From NCBI RefSeq assembly GCF_020885515.1, contig NZ_AP024987.1:660001-692000 (forward strand): 32,000 bases of DNA, given 5' to 3'. Shown here in pieces: positions 3,752 to 25,363 of this stretch (positions are counted from its first letter, which is position 1; every line of letters begins with the position of its first letter). Both the position numbers and the translations under genes were made by a program. The stretch is from a cyanobacterium endosymbiont of Braarudosphaera bigelowii (GTDB lineage Bacteria > Cyanobacteriota > Cyanobacteriia > Cyanobacteriales > Microcystaceae). The notes beneath the pieces were generated by a model, which had not been told where the DNA came from, searched no databases, and saw only the letters and a program-made list of their open reading frames with translations.

Positions 3752-5020
3752 TTAAGTAATTTGTTTTTTCTTTATTCTTTTTCCAATTACGTTAGCATCT
3801 ATATTGTAATAACTTGCTGCTTGTGAATTATTAAAGCTTAATCTCTCTTCATCCTTTAACCTGTATCGAACAACTGGTTTAATAGGTAATATATCTAAAG
3901 CTTTAATAATTTCTTTGGCGATAGCTCTTGCTAATAAAGGGGGTACTGAATTACCAACTTGTCGAAATCCATGCCACTTAGTCACATGAAATCTAAACCA
4001 ATCAGGATAAGAATGCAATCTTGCAGCTTCTCTGACAGTAATACATCTAGGAGTAAAGGGATGAATAGGTCGAGGAGATGTGTATGATCCTCTATTACTA
4101 GGTGTTCCAGCTCTTAAAGTATTACAAAAACCTTCTGGGTGCAATTTGAAAAATCTGCTAATAGGTTCCTTTTGACCTTGAGGGGTTTTTTGAAATCTTT
4201 CAATCAATTTTTTTGTGTGCTTTGTTCTTAAACTGGAAGTTAAAAGATTCTTATCATATATTCTTTGATAAGAAAAATTATCACTGGAGTTAAGAATACT
4301 TTGAACATAATCATTATGTTCAAAGTAGTTAACTTTAATCCAATCCTTGTAGTTTAGCTCTGGATAATAGTTAACTTCAGGTAAATTACTGATAGCTTGA
4401 CTTACTGTTGGAGTAAAAGGAATAGTGAAATTTACGTTTCTTTCGTAATTAGTCAAAAATTGAGGATATTTAGGAAGAGGTAAATTTGATTTTGCTCCTA
4501 GAAGAAAAAGTCTTTTTCTTATTTGTGGAACTCCGTAGTTAGCAGAATTCAATATTCTATAATTTGTTTGGATCTGATAATTATTGGCATTGAATTTATT
4601 AAATATTTCTTCTAAGAATATTTGATTATTTTTCGTAGCCATACCAGGAACATTTTCAATTACAAAGTACTTAGGCTGTAATTCTAGAACTAAGCGAATA
4701 AAATGTTTAACTAAATCATTACGACTATCTTTTGGATCTCGTTTACCTATCGAAGAAAAACCTTGACAAGGTGGACCGCCAAAAACAACATCAATATCCC
4801 TATCTCCAATATGAGATAAATTTTTAATTGTCATAGCATTTATTATAGAAACATCAGAACATATAGTTGTCCAAAATGGAAAATTATATTGATGAACAGC
4901 ACAGTGAATTGGATCAATTTCTATAGCTCCTAAAACATCAAATCCAGCTTGTTCAAAACCAAGTGTCATTCCTCCCACACCGGCGAATAAGTCAATAGCA
5001 ATAGGACGTTTTTGATTCAT
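3752..5020 (-). CDS. dcm: DNA (cytosine-5)-methyltransferase, solitary
   Basis: C5-MTase motifs occur in order: I DLFAGVGGMTLGF, IV GGPPCQGFS, VI FVIENVPG, VIII QIRKRLFLLG and X GNSVPPLLA. A long variable (target recognition) region lies between VIII and the C-terminal motifs. Confidence 0.92.
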   Translation of the reverse strand: MNQKRPIAIDLFAGVGGMTLGFEQAGFDVLGAIEIDPIHCAVHQYNFPFWTTICSDVSIINAMTIKNLSHIGDRDIDVVFGGPPCQGFSSIGKRDPKDSRNDLVKHFIRLVLELQPKYFVIENVPGMATKNNQIFLEEIFNKFNANNYQIQTNYRILNSANYGVPQIRKRLFLLGAKSNLPLPKYPQFLTNYERNVNFTIPFTPTVSQAISNLPEVNYYPELNYKDWIKVNYFEHNDYVQSILNSSDNFSYQRIYDKNLLTSSLRTKHTKKLIERFQKTPQGQKEPISRFFKLHPEGFCNTLRAGTPSNRGSYTSPRPIHPFTPRCITVREAARLHSYPDWFRFHVTKWHGFRQVGNSVPPLLARAIAKEIIKALDILPIKPVVRYRLKDEERLSFNNSQAASYYNIDANVIGKRIKKKQIT

Positions 5021-8665: not shown

Positions 8666-10078
8666 ATGTTTGATGTTCTTAGTGATCGCTTAGAAGAAGC
8701 TTGGAAAAAACTACGTGGTCAAGATGCAATAACTCATACAAATATACAAGAAACTTTAAAAGAAGTTCGACGTGCTCTTTTAGAAGCAGACGTTAATTTA
8801 CAGGTAGTCAAAAATTTTATTATAGATGTTGAAAAATCTGCAATCGGTATAAAAGTCATTGGAGGAGTTAATCCTGGTCAACAGTTTATAAAAGTTGTTT
8901 ATGAAGAATTAGTAAAAGTTATGGGAGAAAGTGCTTCTCCTCTAGCTAGAGCAGAAAATAATCCTACAGTTATTTTAATGGTAGGTTTACAAGGAACTGG
9001 TAAAACAACTGCGACAGCAAAACTTGCTCACTATCTTAAAAAACAAAAACAAAGTTGTTTAATGGTTGCTGCAGATATATACCGTCCTGCAGCCATTGAT
9101 CAATTAAAAACACTAGGAGATCAAATTGAGATTCCAGTTTTTGAATTAGGTAATCAAGAAAACCCTGTTGATATCGCTATCCAAGGTGTTAATCGAGCAA
9201 AAGAAATGGACCTTGATGTAGTTATTATCGACACAGCAGGACGACTACAGGTTGATCAAGAAATGATGCTTGAATTGGCTCAAATAAAAGAAAGTATTAA
9301 TCCTGATGATACTTTACTAGTCGTAGATGCTATGACGGGTCAAGAAGCGGCTAATCTTGCTCAAGTTTTTCATGAGCAAATTAAAGTAACGGGCACAATA
9401 TTAACTAAGATGGATGGAGACACCAGAGGTGGAGCAGCCTTATCAGTTAGGCAGGTTTCAGGACAACCTATAAAGTTTGTTGGTGTTGGTGAAAAAATAG
9501 ATGCTTTGCAACTTTTTTATCCTGATCGAATGGCTTCTAGGATATTAAATATGGGAGATATCCTCACATTAGTGGAAAAAGCTCAGGAAGAAATTGATCT
9601 TTCTGATATGGAACAACTGCAATCGAAAATTCTAGATGCAAAATTCGACTTTAACGATTTTCTTAAACAAACGCGTCTAATGAAAAGCGTGGGATCATTT
9701 AGTAGTATTTTAAAAATGGTTCCAGGATTAAATAAAATTAACACCAAAGACATTGAAAAAGGAGAAAGTGAACTAAAACGTACTGAAGCTATGATCGGTT
9801 CTATGACATTGGAGGAACGAAAAAATCCAGATTTATTAGCAAAATCTCCAAGTCGTAGAAATCGTATTGCTAAAGGTTCAGGACACTCTGAAACTGAAAT
9901 TAGTAAACTAATCAAAAACTTTACTAGAATGCGTACAATGATGCAACAATTAGGAAAAGGTGGAATACCGGGAATGGGGAATGGAATACCAAGTATGGGA
10001 GATTTGTTTGGCCAAAAAGGAAACCAAAAGAAAAAAACGAAAAAAGTGAAAAAGAAAAAGGGTTTTGGAGATCTATAA
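8666..10078 (+). CDS. ffh: Signal recognition particle protein Ffh
   Basis: NG domain with GLQGTGKTT (G1), DTAGR (G3) and TKMDGD (G4). The M domain is Met-rich and ends in a basic tail. Confidence 0.96.
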   Translation: MFDVLSDRLEEAWKKLRGQDAITHTNIQETLKEVRRALLEADVNLQVVKNFIIDVEKSAIGIKVIGGVNPGQQFIKVVYEELVKVMGESASPLARAENNPTVILMVGLQGTGKTTATAKLAHYLKKQKQSCLMVAADIYRPAAIDQLKTLGDQIEIPVFELGNQENPVDIAIQGVNRAKEMDLDVVIIDTAGRLQVDQEMMLELAQIKESINPDDTLLVVDAMTGQEAANLAQVFHEQIKVTGTILTKMDGDTRGGAALSVRQVSGQPIKFVGVGEKIDALQLFYPDRMASRILNMGDILTLVEKAQEEIDLSDMEQLQSKILDAKFDFNDFLKQTRLMKSVGSFSSILKMVPGLNKINTKDIEKGESELKRTEAMIGSMTLEERKNPDLLAKSPSRRNRIAKGSGHSETEISKLIKNFTRMRTMMQQLGKGGIPGMGNGIPSMGDLFGQKGNQKKKTKKVKKKKGFGDL

Positions 10079-10211: not shown

Positions 10212-11087
10212 TTAAAACTTATGCGTTACAAAAATTCCTAACATTTTCTCTCCTAAAAGTTCTGGCTGATCTACCATAGACATATGCCCGCAGTTTGGAA
10301 GATCAATAACATTTTTACCTTGGAAGCTAAAAAGTTTATGAAAACTAGCTAAGTATCTTACATATTGAGGTTCGATTAAAGTATCTTGTCTTCCAGCAAA
10401 AAAATATACCGGTTGTGCTAGACGTGCAACAATTTGTGGCAATATATGGACTTCTGTTTCAGTTGTTGAATTTAATAAAGAGCCTAATGCAGCTATTGAA
10501 TCAGCTCTCATTAAGTCTGTTACTTTCTGTTTTCCCCACCTACTTGCTATAGGATCCGTTACCATCATTTTTGAGAAAAGGATGTTAATTAAAGGAACAT
10601 TTGATAACCAAGGTGGTTTATATTTAACTAATTGTTTTCTAACTAGACGAAATCGTTCAAACTCTTCTTTAAGATATATCCCACCACCAACATTTAAGCA
10701 AACCACTCCTTGAATTTTTTCTGGACAAAGTTCAGCTCCCCACAATGCAATACTTCCCCCAATAGAGTGACCTATTAACCAACTTCTATGAATTTTTAAT
10801 TTTTCTAATAGAATAATTAAATCTTTTGCATAAGTTTCCAGAGCATACGGAGAAGATATTTGTAAATTTTGAGATGAAAAACCTTTAATAGGCTGGGAAT
10901 CTCCAAATCCTCTAATATCATAGATAAGACAAGAATATTTTTTAGAAAGTCTTTTAATGAGAGGGGACCAATATTGGCGACTTAATAACCAACCATGAAC
11001 AAAAATTAGAACAGGTGCAGAAGAATTAGAGGGATATGAAGTTAACTCATAAGTATGAGAAACTCCTAAAATTTTTATAGTTGGCAT
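10212..11087 (-). CDS. Alpha/beta-fold hydrolase
   Basis: Oxyanion region FVHGWLLS, nucleophile elbow GHSIGG and a C-terminal CGHMS His context. The substrate is unknown. Confidence 0.8.
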   Translation of the reverse strand: MPTIKILGVSHTYELTSYPSNSSAPVLIFVHGWLLSRQYWSPLIKRLSKKYSCLIYDIRGFGDSQPIKGFSSQNLQISSPYALETYAKDLIILLEKLKIHRSWLIGHSIGGSIALWGAELCPEKIQGVVCLNVGGGIYLKEEFERFRLVRKQLVKYKPPWLSNVPLINILFSKMMVTDPIASRWGKQKVTDLMRADSIAALGSLLNSTTETEVHILPQIVARLAQPVYFFAGRQDTLIEPQYVRYLASFHKLFSFQGKNVIDLPNCGHMSMVDQPELLGEKMLGIFVTHKF

Positions 11088-19915: not shown

Positions 19916-21550
19916 GTGACTACTCAAATTCCTTTTATTACCAACGACTCAGAAACTTCTCCAGCAAATGTTTCGAGTGACTGCTTTAATCGTAATCATC
20001 AAATGATAGTAATTCTTGATTTTGGTTCTCAATATTCAGAATTAATCGCACGTCGGATTCGAGAGACACACGTTTACTCTGAGGTTATATCCTATCAAAC
20101 TGATATAAAAAAAATATACGAACTTAATCCGAAAGGAATTATCCTTTCAGGAGGGCCTAGTTCAGTTTATAGCGATTTTTCTCCACAATGTGATAAAAAA
20201 ATATGGGACCTCGGCATTCCTATCCTAGGTATTTGTTATGGGATGCAGCTGATGGTACAACAGCTTGGAGGACAGGTTGAAAAAGCAGAGTATGGAGAAT
20301 ATGGCAAGGCATTGTTAAAAATAGATGATCCGACAGATCTATTTACTAACTTGGAGGATAGTTCTACTATGTGGATGAGTCATGGAGATTCATCCACCAA
20401 ACTACCTGAGGGATTTTCTATCCTAGCCCATACAGATAACACACCATGTGCTGCTATTGCTAATCATGATAAAAAACTTTTTGGGGTCCAGTTCCACCCA
20501 GAAGTTGTTCATTCTGTAGGAGGAGTTGTAATTATACGTAATTTTGTTTATCACATTTGTGGATGTGAGCCTACATGGACTACAAAAGCCTTTGTTGATG
20601 AAACAATTAATGACATTCGTAAAAAAGTTAAAGATAAGAAAGTATTGCTAGCCTTGTCTGGAGGAGTAGATTCTTCAACATTAGCCTTTTTACTACATCA
20701 AGCGATTGGTAGCAATTTAACTTGTATGTTTATTGACCAAGGTTTTATGAGAAAGGAAGAACCAGAACGTCTGGTAGATATATTTAGCAAACAATTCCAT
20801 ATCCCTGTTGAATACGTAAATGCGAGAGAACGTTTTATAAAGAAACTAGAAGGAATTGTTGATCCTGAGAAAAAACGTCATCTTATTGGTCATGAATTTA
20901 TACAAGTATTTGAAGAAGAATCTCAGCGTCTTGGTCCTTTCGATTACTTAGCACAAGGGACACTTTACCCTGATGTGATAGAATCTGCAGATATCAATGC
21001 TACTCCTAATGCAGGTGAAAGAGTTGCTGTTAAAATTAAAAGTCATCACAATGTTGGAGGATTACCTAAGAATTTAAGATTTAAACTAGTGGAGCCCTTA
21101 CGCAAATTATTTAAAGATGAAGTCCGAAAAGTCGGTCAGTCTATTGGCTTGCCAGAAGAGATTGTGCGACGTCATCCTTTTCCTGGACCAGGACTAGCTA
21201 TTCGTATAATCGGGGAAGTTACTCGAGAACGTTTAAATATATTAAGAGATGCAGATTATATCGTAAGAGATGAGATAAGTAAGCAAGGCGCATATCACGA
21301 TTTTTGGCAAGCATTTGCTGTATTGCTACCTATTCGGAGCGTTGGAGTAATGGGAGATAAACGTACTTATTCTCATCCAATAGTATTACGTCTTATTACT
21401 AGTGAGGATGGCATGACTGCAGACTGGGCAAGAGTTCCTTATGAACTTTTAGAAGTTATTTCTAATCGTATTGTTAATGAGGTAAGAGAAGTGAACCGTG
21501 TAGTTTACGATATAACTTCTAAGCCTCCAGGAACTATTGAATGGGAATAA
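19916..21550 (+). CDS. guaA: GMP synthase (glutamine-hydrolysing)
   Basis: GATase domain with catalytic GICYGMQ, ATP-pyrophosphatase P-loop SGGVDSS and the conserved C-terminal dimerisation domain ending PPGTIEWE. The GTG start gives the cyanobacterial-type N-terminal extension MTTQ... Confidence 0.96.
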
Positions 21551-21609
21551 TTATGAAAACTAAGCCATAATATTTATTAAAATGTTATGGCTTAGTTTTC
21601 ATAATTATT
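21546..21609. terminator. 64-nt near-perfect palindrome; candidate bidirectional terminator between convergent guaA and vipp1
   Basis: 25-bp perfect outer stem 21546-21570 / 21585-21609 (AATAATTATGAAAACTAAGCCATAA / TTATGGCTTAGTTTTCATAATTATT). After one T/G position there are 4 further inner pairs and a 4-nt loop. The stem includes the guaA stop codon (21548-21550). Confidence 0.6.
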
Positions 21610-22786: not shown

Positions 22787-23110
22787 CTATATTTGGTCTT
22801 TTAGCTCTTGTAGTTTAATGGCTTTGATTTGATTTTCCCGGAATGATTTAGTAGCTTTACTAAGATCATCTATAGTATCTTCTATAAATTCACCATTATT
22901 GCGGCTTCTTTGAAAATTTGTCCTGTGCATTAAATTTAAAGGATTTATAAGATTTTCTGATTCCTCGGTTTCATTACTTCTATTATTTTGATAAGAATGT
23001 ATATTGATTGATTTTTTTGATTGAGAATAAGCTTCTGGAATACTTTGAAAAGTAACTAACAAAAAAATTGGTAGAAATACGAACTTGATTGGTTCGAACT
23101 TTTTAAACAT
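22787..23110 (-). CDS. Hypothetical small secreted protein
   Basis: 107-aa ORF with a signal-peptide-like N-terminus (KFVFLPIFLLVTFQSIPEAYSQ) and a polar, low-complexity remainder. GAGGGA lies 10 nt upstream of the ATG. It sits 40 bp downstream of the ABC-2 permease on the same strand. Confidence 0.45.
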   Translation of the reverse strand: MFKKFEPIKFVFLPIFLLVTFQSIPEAYSQSKKSINIHSYQNNRSNETEESENLINPLNLMHRTNFQRSRNNGEFIEDTIDDLSKATKSFRENQIKAIKLQELKDQI

Positions 23111-23150: not shown

Positions 23151-24026
23151 TTAATTAAATCTTCTACGTAATAATGGTTGAATAGAAAACAAAACTAGTA
23201 GATCAAATCCTAATAGTAGAAGTAAGGTTTCTACTCCATTAATCTCGATGAAAGGATTTCTAAAGATAATACTATTCATAGATAGATTTCCGTAAAGATA
23301 GATATACCTTATAAATTCAATAGCATAAGTTAGAGGATTTAAACTGGCAATAATCTGCAGCCATTTTGCCATAAAAGAGAGGGGTGCAAGAGCAGTACTT
23401 GCAAATAGTAGAGGTAAGTTAGTGACAAAAATAACGGCGATAAGTTCAATATGGCCAGGCAATGCAAAGGCAAGTCCGAGACTTAACCCTGTTACTCCAC
23501 ACACAGTTAACAAAATAACAAGAATAATCGCTACTAAATCAAAAATGTTGGGAATGCCGGCTCCTAGTATTGAACTTGCTATTATAATAACTCCTGTTTG
23601 GATTAGGCTAAGACTAATAATATATAAAGTGGAAGATGCAACAATAGAGTATCGAGAAGATAATGGGGCAACTAATAGACGATTAAGGAATCCAAACTCT
23701 CTATCAAACATTATAGGAAGTCCTGCATTTAACGATCCTGAAAAAGCTGTAAATATTATGATTCCAGGTGATAAAAATTTTGCATAATTAATATTGTTTT
23801 CAAAGATTCCTTCTGGGGCATTATGAAATAATGCCCCAAATAATATTAACCACATAAAAGGCTGGACAATACCTGCTATTAAACTAGAAGGTCGACGCCA
23901 TAACTGAATGAATAAACGTTTAGTCATAGCTAAGGTCTCTTGTAAAAATTCTGATAAAAAATTTTCTTGTTGACAAGTATTGTTTATAGAATTTGGCGAT
24001 AAAAAATCTTTATTCTCAGAAGACAC
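23151..24026 (-). CDS. ABC-2 type transporter permease
   Basis: 291 aa with about 6 hydrophobic helices and an ABC-2 (DrrB/NodJ-like) architecture. It lies directly downstream of an ABC ATPase. The start codon is GTG. Confidence 0.85.
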   Translation of the reverse strand: MSSENKDFLSPNSINNTCQQENFLSEFLQETLAMTKRLFIQLWRRPSSLIAGIVQPFMWLILFGALFHNAPEGIFENNINYAKFLSPGIIIFTAFSGSLNAGLPIMFDREFGFLNRLLVAPLSSRYSIVASSTLYIISLSLIQTGVIIIASSILGAGIPNIFDLVAIILVILLTVCGVTGLSLGLAFALPGHIELIAVIFVTNLPLLFASTALAPLSFMAKWLQIIASLNPLTYAIEFIRYIYLYGNLSMNSIIFRNPFIEINGVETLLLLLGFDLLVLFSIQPLLRRRFN

Positions 24027-24365
24027 AAGTTTTTATTTCCGCTTTATTACTTATTATTTTATGATTCTAACCTAATATTATGGTTTAGTTCATTTGTTGT
24101 TTTTTCTCTATAAAAGGCTGGACAATACCTGCTATTAAACTAGAAGGTCGACGCCATAACTGAATGAATAAACGTTTAGTCATAGCTAAGGTCTCTTGTA
24201 AAAATTCTGATAAAAAATTTTCTTGTTGACAAGTATTGTTTATAGAATTTGGCGATAAAAAATCTTTATTCTCAGAAGACACAAGTTTTTATTTCCGCTT
24301 TATTACTTATTATTTTATGATTCTAACCTAATATTATGGTTTAGTTCATTTGTTGTTTTTTCTCT
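23854..24365. repeat. Perfect head-to-tail tandem duplication, 2 x 256 bp (unit 1 23854-24109, unit 2 24110-24365)
   Basis: A base-by-base comparison by eye finds no difference between the two units. Each unit holds the permease 5' end (57 codons plus part of codon 58), the 58-bp ATPase-permease spacer, and the last 7 codons plus stop of the ATPase. Confidence 0.95.
24085..24282 (-). pseudogene. Duplication-derived chimeric ORF: permease codons 1-57, one junction codon, then the last 7 codons of the ATPase
   Basis: The translation MSSENKDF...IAGIVQPF is identical to the permease N-terminus. It then reads I-EKKQQMN*, and EKKQQMN* is the ATPase C-terminus. The ORF carries the same GTG start and upstream spacer as the real permease. 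Confidence 0.6.
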
Positions 24366-25363
24366 TTTTTTAAATCTCTATTACCTACAGCAGCTAACTC
24401 GGCATCTATTAAGGTCTGTCCTGTTGCTGCTAGATATACATCATCAAGACTAGGACGGGATTGAGATAAGCTAAAGATACCTAAATTAGCATTTTCAAGA
24501 GCTTTTTCTATTTTACTAAATAAATTTGTTTCTCCTTTAACTATTAAATTTAAAGAATTTCCTTGGGATTTGTTAATAATAATTTCTTCTACAAACGGTA
24601 ATTTTTGTAAAATTTCCTGAGCTTGATACACATCTCTAAGTTCTGAAAATTCTTGAATTTTTAAAGTGATACGATTACCACCTAAGTGATTTTTAAGTTG
24701 AGATGGAGTTCCTTGGGCAATTACTTTACCACAATCAATAATAGCTAAGTTATCTGCTAGAGAATCAATTTCCTCTAAGTAGTGACTTGTTATGAGAATT
24801 GTCGTTCCTGCCATTTTAAGCTTTTTAAGGAATTCCCAAACTATTAATCGACTTTCAATATCTAAACCAACAGTTGGTTCGTCAAGAACTAGTAAACTCG
24901 GTCTGTGTAACAACCCGGCAGCAAGATCAAATCTTTTGCGAATTCCTCCTGAATAATCTCCTGTTTTGCGATCGCTATATTCATTCAGATTCAATAAAGT
25001 TAATAGTTTTTCAATTCTATCTTCAGCATCACGTCTAGATAAATGATAAAGAGATCCTTGTAGTTGAAGTAATTCTCTACCTGTCAAAATTTTATCAAGC
25101 GTAACATCTTGTGCAACATAGCCTAAAAAATTTCTAATAACGTTTGGATATTTTAATGCTGAAATTCCACCAACTTTAATTTCTCCACTATCAGGTTTAG
25201 TTAAAGTAGATAAACATCGAATAGTTGTTGTTTTACCCGATCCATTTGGTCCTAATAAGCCAAAAATTTCTCCTTTATTAATATTAAAGGAAATGTTTTG
25301 AACTGCTTTTACACTATTAAAACTTTTTTGTAACGATTCAATTATAACTAAGGGAGTCATCAT
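24341..25363 (-). CDS. ABC transporter ATP-binding protein (ABC-2/DrrA-like subfamily, with a C-terminal accessory domain)
   Basis: Walker A GLLGPNGSGKTT, Q-loop, signature YSGGIRKRFDLA, Walker B LLVLDEPTVGLD and H-loop TSHYLEE. Confidence 0.93.
   Translation of the reverse strand: MMTPLVIIESLQKSFNSVKAVQNISFNINKGEIFGLLGPNGSGKTTTIRCLSTLTKPDSGEIKVGGISALKYPNVIRNFLGYVAQDVTLDKILTGRELLQLQGSLYHLSRRDAEDRIEKLLTLLNLNEYSDRKTGDYSGGIRKRFDLAAGLLHRPSLLVLDEPTVGLDIESRLIVWEFLKKLKMAGTTILITSHYLEEIDSLADNLAIIDCGKVIAQGTPSQLKNHLGGNRITLKIQEFSELRDVYQAQEILQKLPFVEEIIINKSQGNSLNLIVKGETNLFSKIEKALENANLGIFSLSQSRPSLDDVYLAATGQTLIDAELAAVGNRDLKKEKKQQMN

Follow-up and report, generated by a model that had tools for sequence, protein, structure and literature searches.

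A perfect 256-bp tandem duplication at an ABC-2 exporter locus in the single-cell genome assembly of the Braarudosphaera bigelowii endosymbiont

The deposited genome AP024987 of the cyanobacterial endosymbiont (nitroplast) of Braarudosphaera bigelowii contains two abutting 256-bp units across the border between an ABC transporter ATPase gene and its permease gene. The locus raises the question of whether the second unit was present in the living cell or was made while the DNA was prepared and assembled, and of what it does to the two genes that it touches. The stretch analysed, called the window below, comprised 32,000 nucleotides (contig NZ_AP024987.1, positions 660,001 to 692,000 of the forward strand), and positions are counted from its first letter. 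The duplication had been described in an earlier note made from these letters, and the claims of that note are taken up where the results bear on them.

Structure and distribution of the duplication

One strong array was reported in the 32-kb window by Tandem Repeats Finder, at 23854-24365, with a period of 256, 2.0 copies, 100% matches, 0 indels and a score of 1024. A separate repeat finder recovered the same pair, 23854-24109 and 24110-24365, at 100%. In a direct string comparison, copy 1 and copy 2 were identical at 256/256 positions, and the period-256 match ended at the unit borders, with not one further base matching to the left or right; the microhomology at the junction was therefore 0 nt. 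The three boundaries read ..CCAC/ATAAAAG, ..TCTCT/ATAAAAG and ..TCTCT/TTTTTTA. No further repeat of at least 30 nt with an identity above 78% was found in the window by the repeat finder. A perfect adjacent 256-mer is impossible by chance, and two adjacent head-to-tail copies with a single novel junction constitute a tandem segmental duplication at the level of the sequence. On all these points (identity, lack of microhomology and lack of other repeats, the last at the thresholds just given) the computation agreed with the earlier note, and no mismatch between the units was found.

The content of the unit was read on the minus strand. In each copy, the end of the ATPase gene contributes 25 nt (7 codons, the stop and 1 extra base); a 58-nt spacer follows, and then come 173 nt from the start of the permease gene (57 codons and 2 nt). 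The three pieces named in the earlier note were therefore present, and only their exact sizes had to be corrected. The map of open reading frames (ORFs) also bore out that both flanking genes stay full length and that the additional 65-aa ORF at 24085-24282 is an in-frame fusion of the permease start to the ATPase tail. This mini-ORF consists of permease residues 1-57, the junction codon ATA (Ile) and the ATPase tail EKKQQMN. It carries the permease's own start region and reads in frame to a stop. The two 58-nt spacers, one before the mini-ORF and one before the permease, were identical to each other.

A comparison with related strains and metagenome bins, proposed in the earlier note, was carried out on 18 contigs spanning five sublineages, and every one of these relatives had a single copy. 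The set comprised 13 distinct contigs of the same sublineage (independent assemblies, 99.0-99.4% identity), one mosaic contig (L093) and four other UCYN-A sublineages at 83-88% DNA identity. The same-sublineage contigs came from the SIO64986 draft, the metagenome-assembled genome (MAG) JAGDYS01, several Tara, KOPF15 and other ENA assemblies, and the Logan assembly of SRR10912901. The other sublineages were represented by UCYN-A4 (L001/L082), two ENA scaffolds (L080 and L081) and a 150-kb Tara contig (L090). The nearest species-representative genome was the UCYN-A4 MAG, Candidatus Atelocyanobacterium thalassa, whose ATPase was 93% identical, and the next matches reached only 40%.

In all 18 loci the BLAST segments split exactly at 24109/24110 and overlapped by exactly 256 nt in the subject. 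The genes called in the relatives were the ATPase, the 58-nt spacer and the permease, with the same spacing, and in seven of these loci the single unit was identical to that of the window at 256/256 positions. The junction 20-mer (the word at 24100-24119) was absent from all 183 fetched loci, and a junction 42-mer and a junction 28-mer gave zero matches in the genome-contig and metagenome-contig collections. Moreover, the 65-aa protein was the only member of its cluster and occurred on a single contig, that of the source genome. To judge from these sequences, the duplication is private to AP024987 and the ancestral state is a single copy, the breakpoints mapping cleanly in the relatives.

Two of the relatives call for a remark of their own. 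The SIO64986 draft had been suspected of carrying the mini-ORF, with three coding sequences (CDS) between the PcyA gene and the gene of a 107-aa protein; the extra CDS was an unrelated 63-aa call in the PcyA-ATPase interval. The mosaic metagenome contig (L093, OJFS01011518.1, 1222 bp) was about 99% identical to the window over its first 641 nt (6 mismatches) and about 88% identical over the remaining 531 nt (65 mismatches). It is most likely a chimeric co-assembly of two co-occurring UCYN-A sublineages and less likely a recombinant.

The presence of the junction in the sequenced molecules was read indirectly, from the Logan assembly of run DRR256276. Three Logan contigs of this run were 100.000% identical to the window, covering 9,608, 5,097 and 6,076 nt; the other assemblies all differed from it by 0.6-1%. 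The run appears to be the source library, DRA011127. Logan uses a k=31 de Bruijn graph in which k-mers seen once are discarded and each 31-mer is kept once. The contig on the permease side (DRR256276_1545) stopped at 23883, 30 nt into copy 1, and the contig on the ATPase side (DRR256276_2) entered copy 2 from the opposite side and stopped after 30 nt, at 24336. Both breaks lie k-1 (30 nt) inside the unit, which is the pattern of a loop from the unit end to the unit start. A contig stops k-1 nt past such a boundary because the unit end has two successors, namely the permease body and the unit start, and the unit start has two predecessors.

Since the k=31 assembly breaks k-1 nt inside the unit on both sides, the junction was in the sequenced library and was seen at least 2 times. 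On the basis of these contig ends, the junction was physically present in the library. The 13 other samples, including the Logan contig of SRR10912901 (L166), ran straight through the locus. The junction edge was retained both by the clean-up of Minia3 and by the authors' SPAdes assembly; the default settings of Minia remove weak connecting edges, and its retention suggests that reads with the junction were not a rare class at this locus. The 256-nt unit contig of the Logan graph, sought through its predicted 57-aa partial product, was not in the collection.

Some other contig ends were noted in the same comparison. The end of one contig (L180) at 24370 was considered as a graph branch and rejected as coincidence or low coverage, as it lies 5 nt outside the unit and a branch would stop k-1 nt inside. 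A further contig of the same run (DRR256276_10) stopped at 9608, inside a 470-aa ORF (8666-10078) and in locally unique sequence, and the other end of DRR256276_1545 fell at about 10574 (by arithmetic from its size), inside an ORF at 10212-11087. About 1 kb between approximately 9608 and 10574 was not covered by the long contigs of this run, and no repeat was visible there in the deposited sequence. These breaks may come from chimeric branches of multiple displacement amplification (MDA) or from a drop-out of coverage.

Origin of the junction

The history of the sample bears on every reading of the junction. AP024987 was obtained from one B. bigelowii cell with the Illustra GenomiPhi kit (phi29 MDA), followed by S1 nuclease treatment and MiSeq 2x300 sequencing (Suzuki et al. 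2021, PMC8679911). SPAdes 3.1.1 with k=77 gave 188 endosymbiont scaffolds, which were brought to four contigs in CodonCode Aligner, and the gaps were closed by polymerase chain reaction (PCR), cloning and Sanger sequencing; a duplication is nowhere mentioned in that work (PMC8679911). In phi29 MDA, a chimeric junction arises about once in every 10-22 kb of product; treatment with S1 nuclease reduces such chimeras without eliminating them (PMC1855051). Most of the chimeras are intramolecular, and the distances that they span have their mode at 250-300 nt (PMC1855051; review PMC9984789). According to Lasken and Stockwell 2007 (PMC1855051), 85% of them are inverted, and only 11/475 were direct and less than 10 kb apart. 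In more than 70%, the join shows 2-21 nt of complementarity, with a mode near 7 nt (PMC1855051; PMC9984789).

The reading that we favour, with about even credence, is that the junction existed in the living cell as a one-off head-to-tail segmental duplication of 256 bp, private to the single cell behind AP024987. It would have originated in vivo, by a homology-independent template switch or an illegitimate join during replication of the endosymbiont chromosome. After copying the stretch between ATPase codon 333 and permease codon 58, the nascent strand would have gone back by 256 nt, re-primed there and copied that stretch a second time. A polymerase stall in front of an 11-bp template hairpin, at a distance of 15 nt from it, might have preceded the switch. 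The hairpin is perfect and occupies 23814-23838, outside the unit and 15 nt from its left breakpoint; it had a folding energy of -13.4 kcal/mol as DNA (z-score -4.1), which none of the 200 shuffles equalled. It is possibly a polymerase stall site that favoured the template switch. The hairpin does not discriminate between the origins, because it could stall the cellular replisome and, less plausibly, phi29.

The duplication would be younger than the private branch of the strain (about 0.45% divergence) and selectively near-neutral, and the 65-aa ORF would be an accidental by-product without function. The strain is distinct, with 39 private single-nucleotide polymorphisms and three private 1-nt indels in about 8.7 kb relative to five relatives, and a private structural variant is plausible and unremarkable in such a strain. 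At the oldest admissible age, that of the private branch, only about 1.5-2.6 differences between the copies were expected, and the probability of 0 differences averaged over the age of the duplication was about 0.4. The zero divergence is not a proof of recency, because only about 2 differences are expected even at that age. In sequence terms it is uninformative for dating, as strains of the same sublineage differ by less than 1%.

These numbers also bear on the three options that the earlier note had drawn from the zero divergence, namely a very recent duplication, active homogenisation and an assembly artefact. A recent duplication stays viable, and the claim that zero divergence implies one was too strong. 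Homogenisation was rejected because 18/18 relatives have a single copy, so that there is no older duplication to homogenise. The assembly artefact, in its simple form, fell on the read-level evidence given below. The list lacked the amplification chimera, which has to be weighed here as the source DNA was phi29-amplified from a single cell.

A phi29 MDA chimera is quite possible as well, and we hold it at somewhat short of even credence. A displaced 3' end would have re-primed 256 nt upstream on the same template strand, early enough for the product to dominate the locus, and SPAdes would have crossed the resulting loop once, writing two copies of a unit that is single in the living genome. 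Several observations speak for such a chimera and, by the same token, weigh against an origin in the cell. The library came from one cell and was amplified with the GenomiPhi kit, the published rate is one junction per 10-22 kb, and S1 nuclease leaves some chimeras behind. The span of 256 nt falls within the modal range of 250-300 nt of the intramolecular short-distance chimeras. The duplication was missing from every other UCYN-A assembly examined, that is from 13/13 of the same sublineage at about 99% identity, from the mosaic contig and from the four other sublineages, several with an identical unit; the junction and the 65-aa ORF were seen only in AP024987. In addition, further contigs from the reads of DRR256276 broke in locally unique sequence, which indicates that read-level branches or drop-outs are common in this library.

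Three more points weigh against the duplication having been formed in the cell. An assembler crosses a simple loop once and writes two copies whatever the frequency of the junction, no second, unamplified data set of the strain was present in the collections searched, and zero microhomology is also atypical of slippage duplications in vivo.

The anatomy of the junction, however, is uncommon for an MDA chimera. It is direct and short-range, of the kind that made up only 11/475 when 85% were inverted, and it has 0 nt of complementary overlap, where more than 70% have 2-21 nt with a mode near 7 nt. The inverted, complementary form is typical and not obligatory, so its absence lowers the probability of a chimera rather than excluding it. 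Moreover, the amplified DNA had been treated with S1 nuclease, which reduces chimeras, and the junction needed a high frequency at the locus to survive the clean-up of two assemblers. A rough estimate of the Luria-Delbruck type would give only about 0.1-1 duplication-type events per 1.5-Mb genome, and both kinds of event, in the cell and in the amplification, would be expected at about 0.1-1 per genome by such a rough estimate.

A finishing artefact is very unlikely. Here a 256-nt contig overlap would have been joined untrimmed at the CodonCode or PCR stage, or a rotated circular contig would have been left untrimmed, and no molecule with the junction would exist. The genome was indeed finished by hand, from 188 scaffolds to 4 contigs and then by PCR gap closure, and an untrimmed overlap predicts perfect identity and no requirement for microhomology. 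The length of the unit, 256 = 2^8, is also round in binary terms and might point to faulty software; this was noticed after the fact, carries little weight and is contradicted by the read-level evidence. The k=31 assembly of DRR256276 breaks k-1 nt inside the unit on both sides, so that junction k-mers occurred at least 2 times, whereas single-copy read sets, those of the 13 other samples, assemble straight through. The assembly-artefact option of the earlier note, understood as a simple untrimmed join, is unsupported because this assembly branches at both boundaries.

Effects on the exporter genes and on the reference genome

The duplication left the surroundings of the permease start as they had been. 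The 83 nt upstream of this start, made up of 25 nt of ATPase-type tail with its stop and the 58-nt spacer, are unchanged from the state before the duplication. Because of this unchanged context, ribosomes ending on the stop of the mini-ORF would be as far from the permease start as those that ended on the ATPase stop were. The breakpoint cuts the first transmembrane (TM) helix of the permease, TM1, in half, as the first hydrophobic helix has its centre near residue 58. The maximum 19-residue hydropathy of the mini-ORF product was 0.65, which corresponds to no TM segment, and the 65-aa product had no family match in the Pfam and NCBIfam profile search. In a promoter and terminator scan of 22.5-26 kb, the counts were no different from those in shuffles, and nothing regulatory could be assigned to the unit.

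No function is indicated for the duplication or for the mini-ORF. The 65-aa product is, to judge from its sequence, probably made and then degraded, or never made. The suggestion of the earlier note that translational coupling is altered or that a decoy peptide is formed was unsupported, as the 83-nt context is the same and the product has no complete TM helix. A functional or regulated structure, either an old duplication kept by gene conversion or a mini-ORF that acts as a decoy and tunes permease dosage or coupling, is improbable in the extreme: the mini-ORF does have the permease start region in frame to a stop and is annotated by RefSeq as WP_407084191.1, but no second copy occurs in the 18 related loci of five sublineages and so nothing is conserved, the product has no family match and half of TM1 only, the upstream context of the permease is unchanged over 83 nt, and zero divergence precludes any selection test. 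The single-copy state of the relatives brings this reading close to refuted.

Unequal homologous exchange can act on two perfect direct repeats of 256 bp and may make them collapse or expand, so the structure should be unstable. It is highly improbable that the duplication is a genuine, possibly heteroplasmic nitroplast polymorphism within one host cell whose extra start or peptide measurably changes permease expression. If this were true, an organelle-like genome would still generate, and transiently tolerate, homology-independent tandem duplications. What the locus shows is either a tandem duplication of the ordinary short-junction kind or the in-vitro mimic of one, a direct MDA chimera; the structure is not conserved and has no signature of selection or regulation.

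The main value of the result is that of a curation note on AP024987 and WP_407084191.1. AP024987 is the only closed genome of the UCYN-A2 type (nitroplast) from a morphologically identified B. bigelowii cell, and for this reason it is used as a reference. The 256-bp duplication and WP_407084191.1, which are not shared with other UCYN-A assemblies, may be products of single-cell amplification. In comparisons of gene content and in counts of strain-specific genes, the ORF of WP_407084191.1 should be treated as spurious. A real duplication would be a minor instance of structural mutation still going on in an organelle-like genome, with no gene affected and no new question raised.

The exporter operon, its surroundings and known systems

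The features of the locus are collected in Table 1.

Table 1. Features at the duplicated exporter locus (positions in the window)
Feature	Position	Strand	Remarks
ABC transporter ATP-binding protein, DrrA-like, full length	24341..25363	-	340 aa, BDA39731.1; 339 aa, WP_229637655.1
ATPase-to-start spacer, upstream copy, 58 nt	24283..24340	-	now precedes the mini-ORF
65-aa chimeric mini-ORF	24085..24282	-	RefSeq hypothetical protein WP_407084191.1
Spacer, downstream copy, 58 nt	24027..24084	-	directly upstream of the permease GTG start
ABC-2 type transporter permease, full length	23151..24026	-	BDA39730.1, 291 aa, GTG start
Duplication unit, copy 1	23854..24109	no strand	identical to copy 2 at 256/256
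Duplication unit, copy 2	24110..24365	no strand	repeat finders and string comparison
Novel junction	between 24109 and 24110		junction 20-mer unique in the window
Perfect hairpin, 11-bp stem, 3-nt loop (TGGGGCATTAT-GAA-ATAATGCCCCA)	23814..23838	no strand	inside the permease CDS

In the Pfam search, the ATPase passed the gathering scores of PF00005 (ABC_tran, 103.5 vs 25) and PF13732 (DrrA1-3_C, 30.7 vs 27.4), and the permease that of PF01061 (ABC2_membrane, 113.6 bits vs 26.9). By these profile scores, the gene pair is an ABC-2 type exporter at the level of the family. The DDBJ labels are DrrA for BDA39731.1 and hypothetical protein/permease for BDA39730.1. The curated subfamily cutoffs were missed, narrowly with 301.3 vs 312.45 for TIGR01188 (drrA) and with 122 vs 223.05 for TIGR01247 (drrB), and membership in the DrrAB daunorubicin-resistance subfamily was therefore rejected. 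Orthologues of the operon in free-living Crocosphaera had 73-76% identity.

The annotated starts vary between the sources. The permease is given as 291 aa from the GTG in DDBJ and as 258 aa from Met34 in RefSeq, and the ATPase as 340 aa in one database and 339 aa in the other. The GTG start is supported because the permease N-terminus aligns full-length with the homologues of other UCYN-A and of Crocosphaera; the Crocosphaera alignment thus favours the long form of 291 aa as the probable one. The Logan gene call for the ATPase begins at the second Met, and the Logan permease is truncated by the contig end. Exact-protein searches for contigs encoding the 65-aa, 291-aa and 340-aa products, in a set that does not include the source contig, gave no match.

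Directly downstream of the permease, a 107-aa ORF (22787-23110, minus strand) had no Pfam or NCBIfam match. Its position was conserved in all the UCYN-A sublineages examined, with a 105-aa variant in one contig, and the transporter operon may include it as a third, uncharacterised component. Further away, the convergent genes guaA and pspA/IM30 are separated by a 30-nt inverted repeat at 21546-21609 (97% complementary, 4-nt loop) that resembles a bidirectional terminator. It was also aligned in reverse by BLAST in several metagenome contigs, and one contig (L171) has a 114-nt fold-back copy of the repeat at its end, probably because the palindrome was misassembled. A Dcm-type DNA cytosine methyltransferase gene (PF00145) at 3752-5020 on the minus strand has been kept in this strongly reduced, organelle-like genome, and no restriction-endonuclease domain was found among the neighbouring genes listed for the Dcm-type methyltransferase locus (L183).

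The host genes and the duplication can each be set beside a known system. Like the DrrAB-type ABC-2 exporters, the pair has an ATPase with an ABC_tran and a DrrA1-3 C-terminal domain and a permease with an ABC2_membrane domain, in the order ATPase and then permease; it differs from them in that both proteins fall under the curated subfamily cutoffs.

The duplication resembles the direct phi29 MDA chimeras in coming from a one-cell phi29 library, in being intramolecular and short-range, in having a 256-nt span that falls in the published mode of 250-300 nt and in being private to the amplified sample. However, most MDA chimeras are inverted (85%), and most have 2-21 nt of complementarity, while the junction here is direct with none, and such chimeras are typically rare per site, while this junction was frequent enough to enter two assemblies.

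The other counterpart is the class of short-junction, homology-independent tandem duplications known from work on Salmonella and E. coli, which arise by illegitimate recombination or when replication switches template, and which RecA-type unequal exchange removes again. These bacterial duplications usually have a few nt of homology at the junction, where the present one has 0 nt, and the present case comes from one single-cell data set and from a reduced, organelle-like endosymbiont genome. The likeness lies in the identical head-to-tail copies, the one novel junction, the single copy of the relatives, the intact flanking genes and the expected instability.

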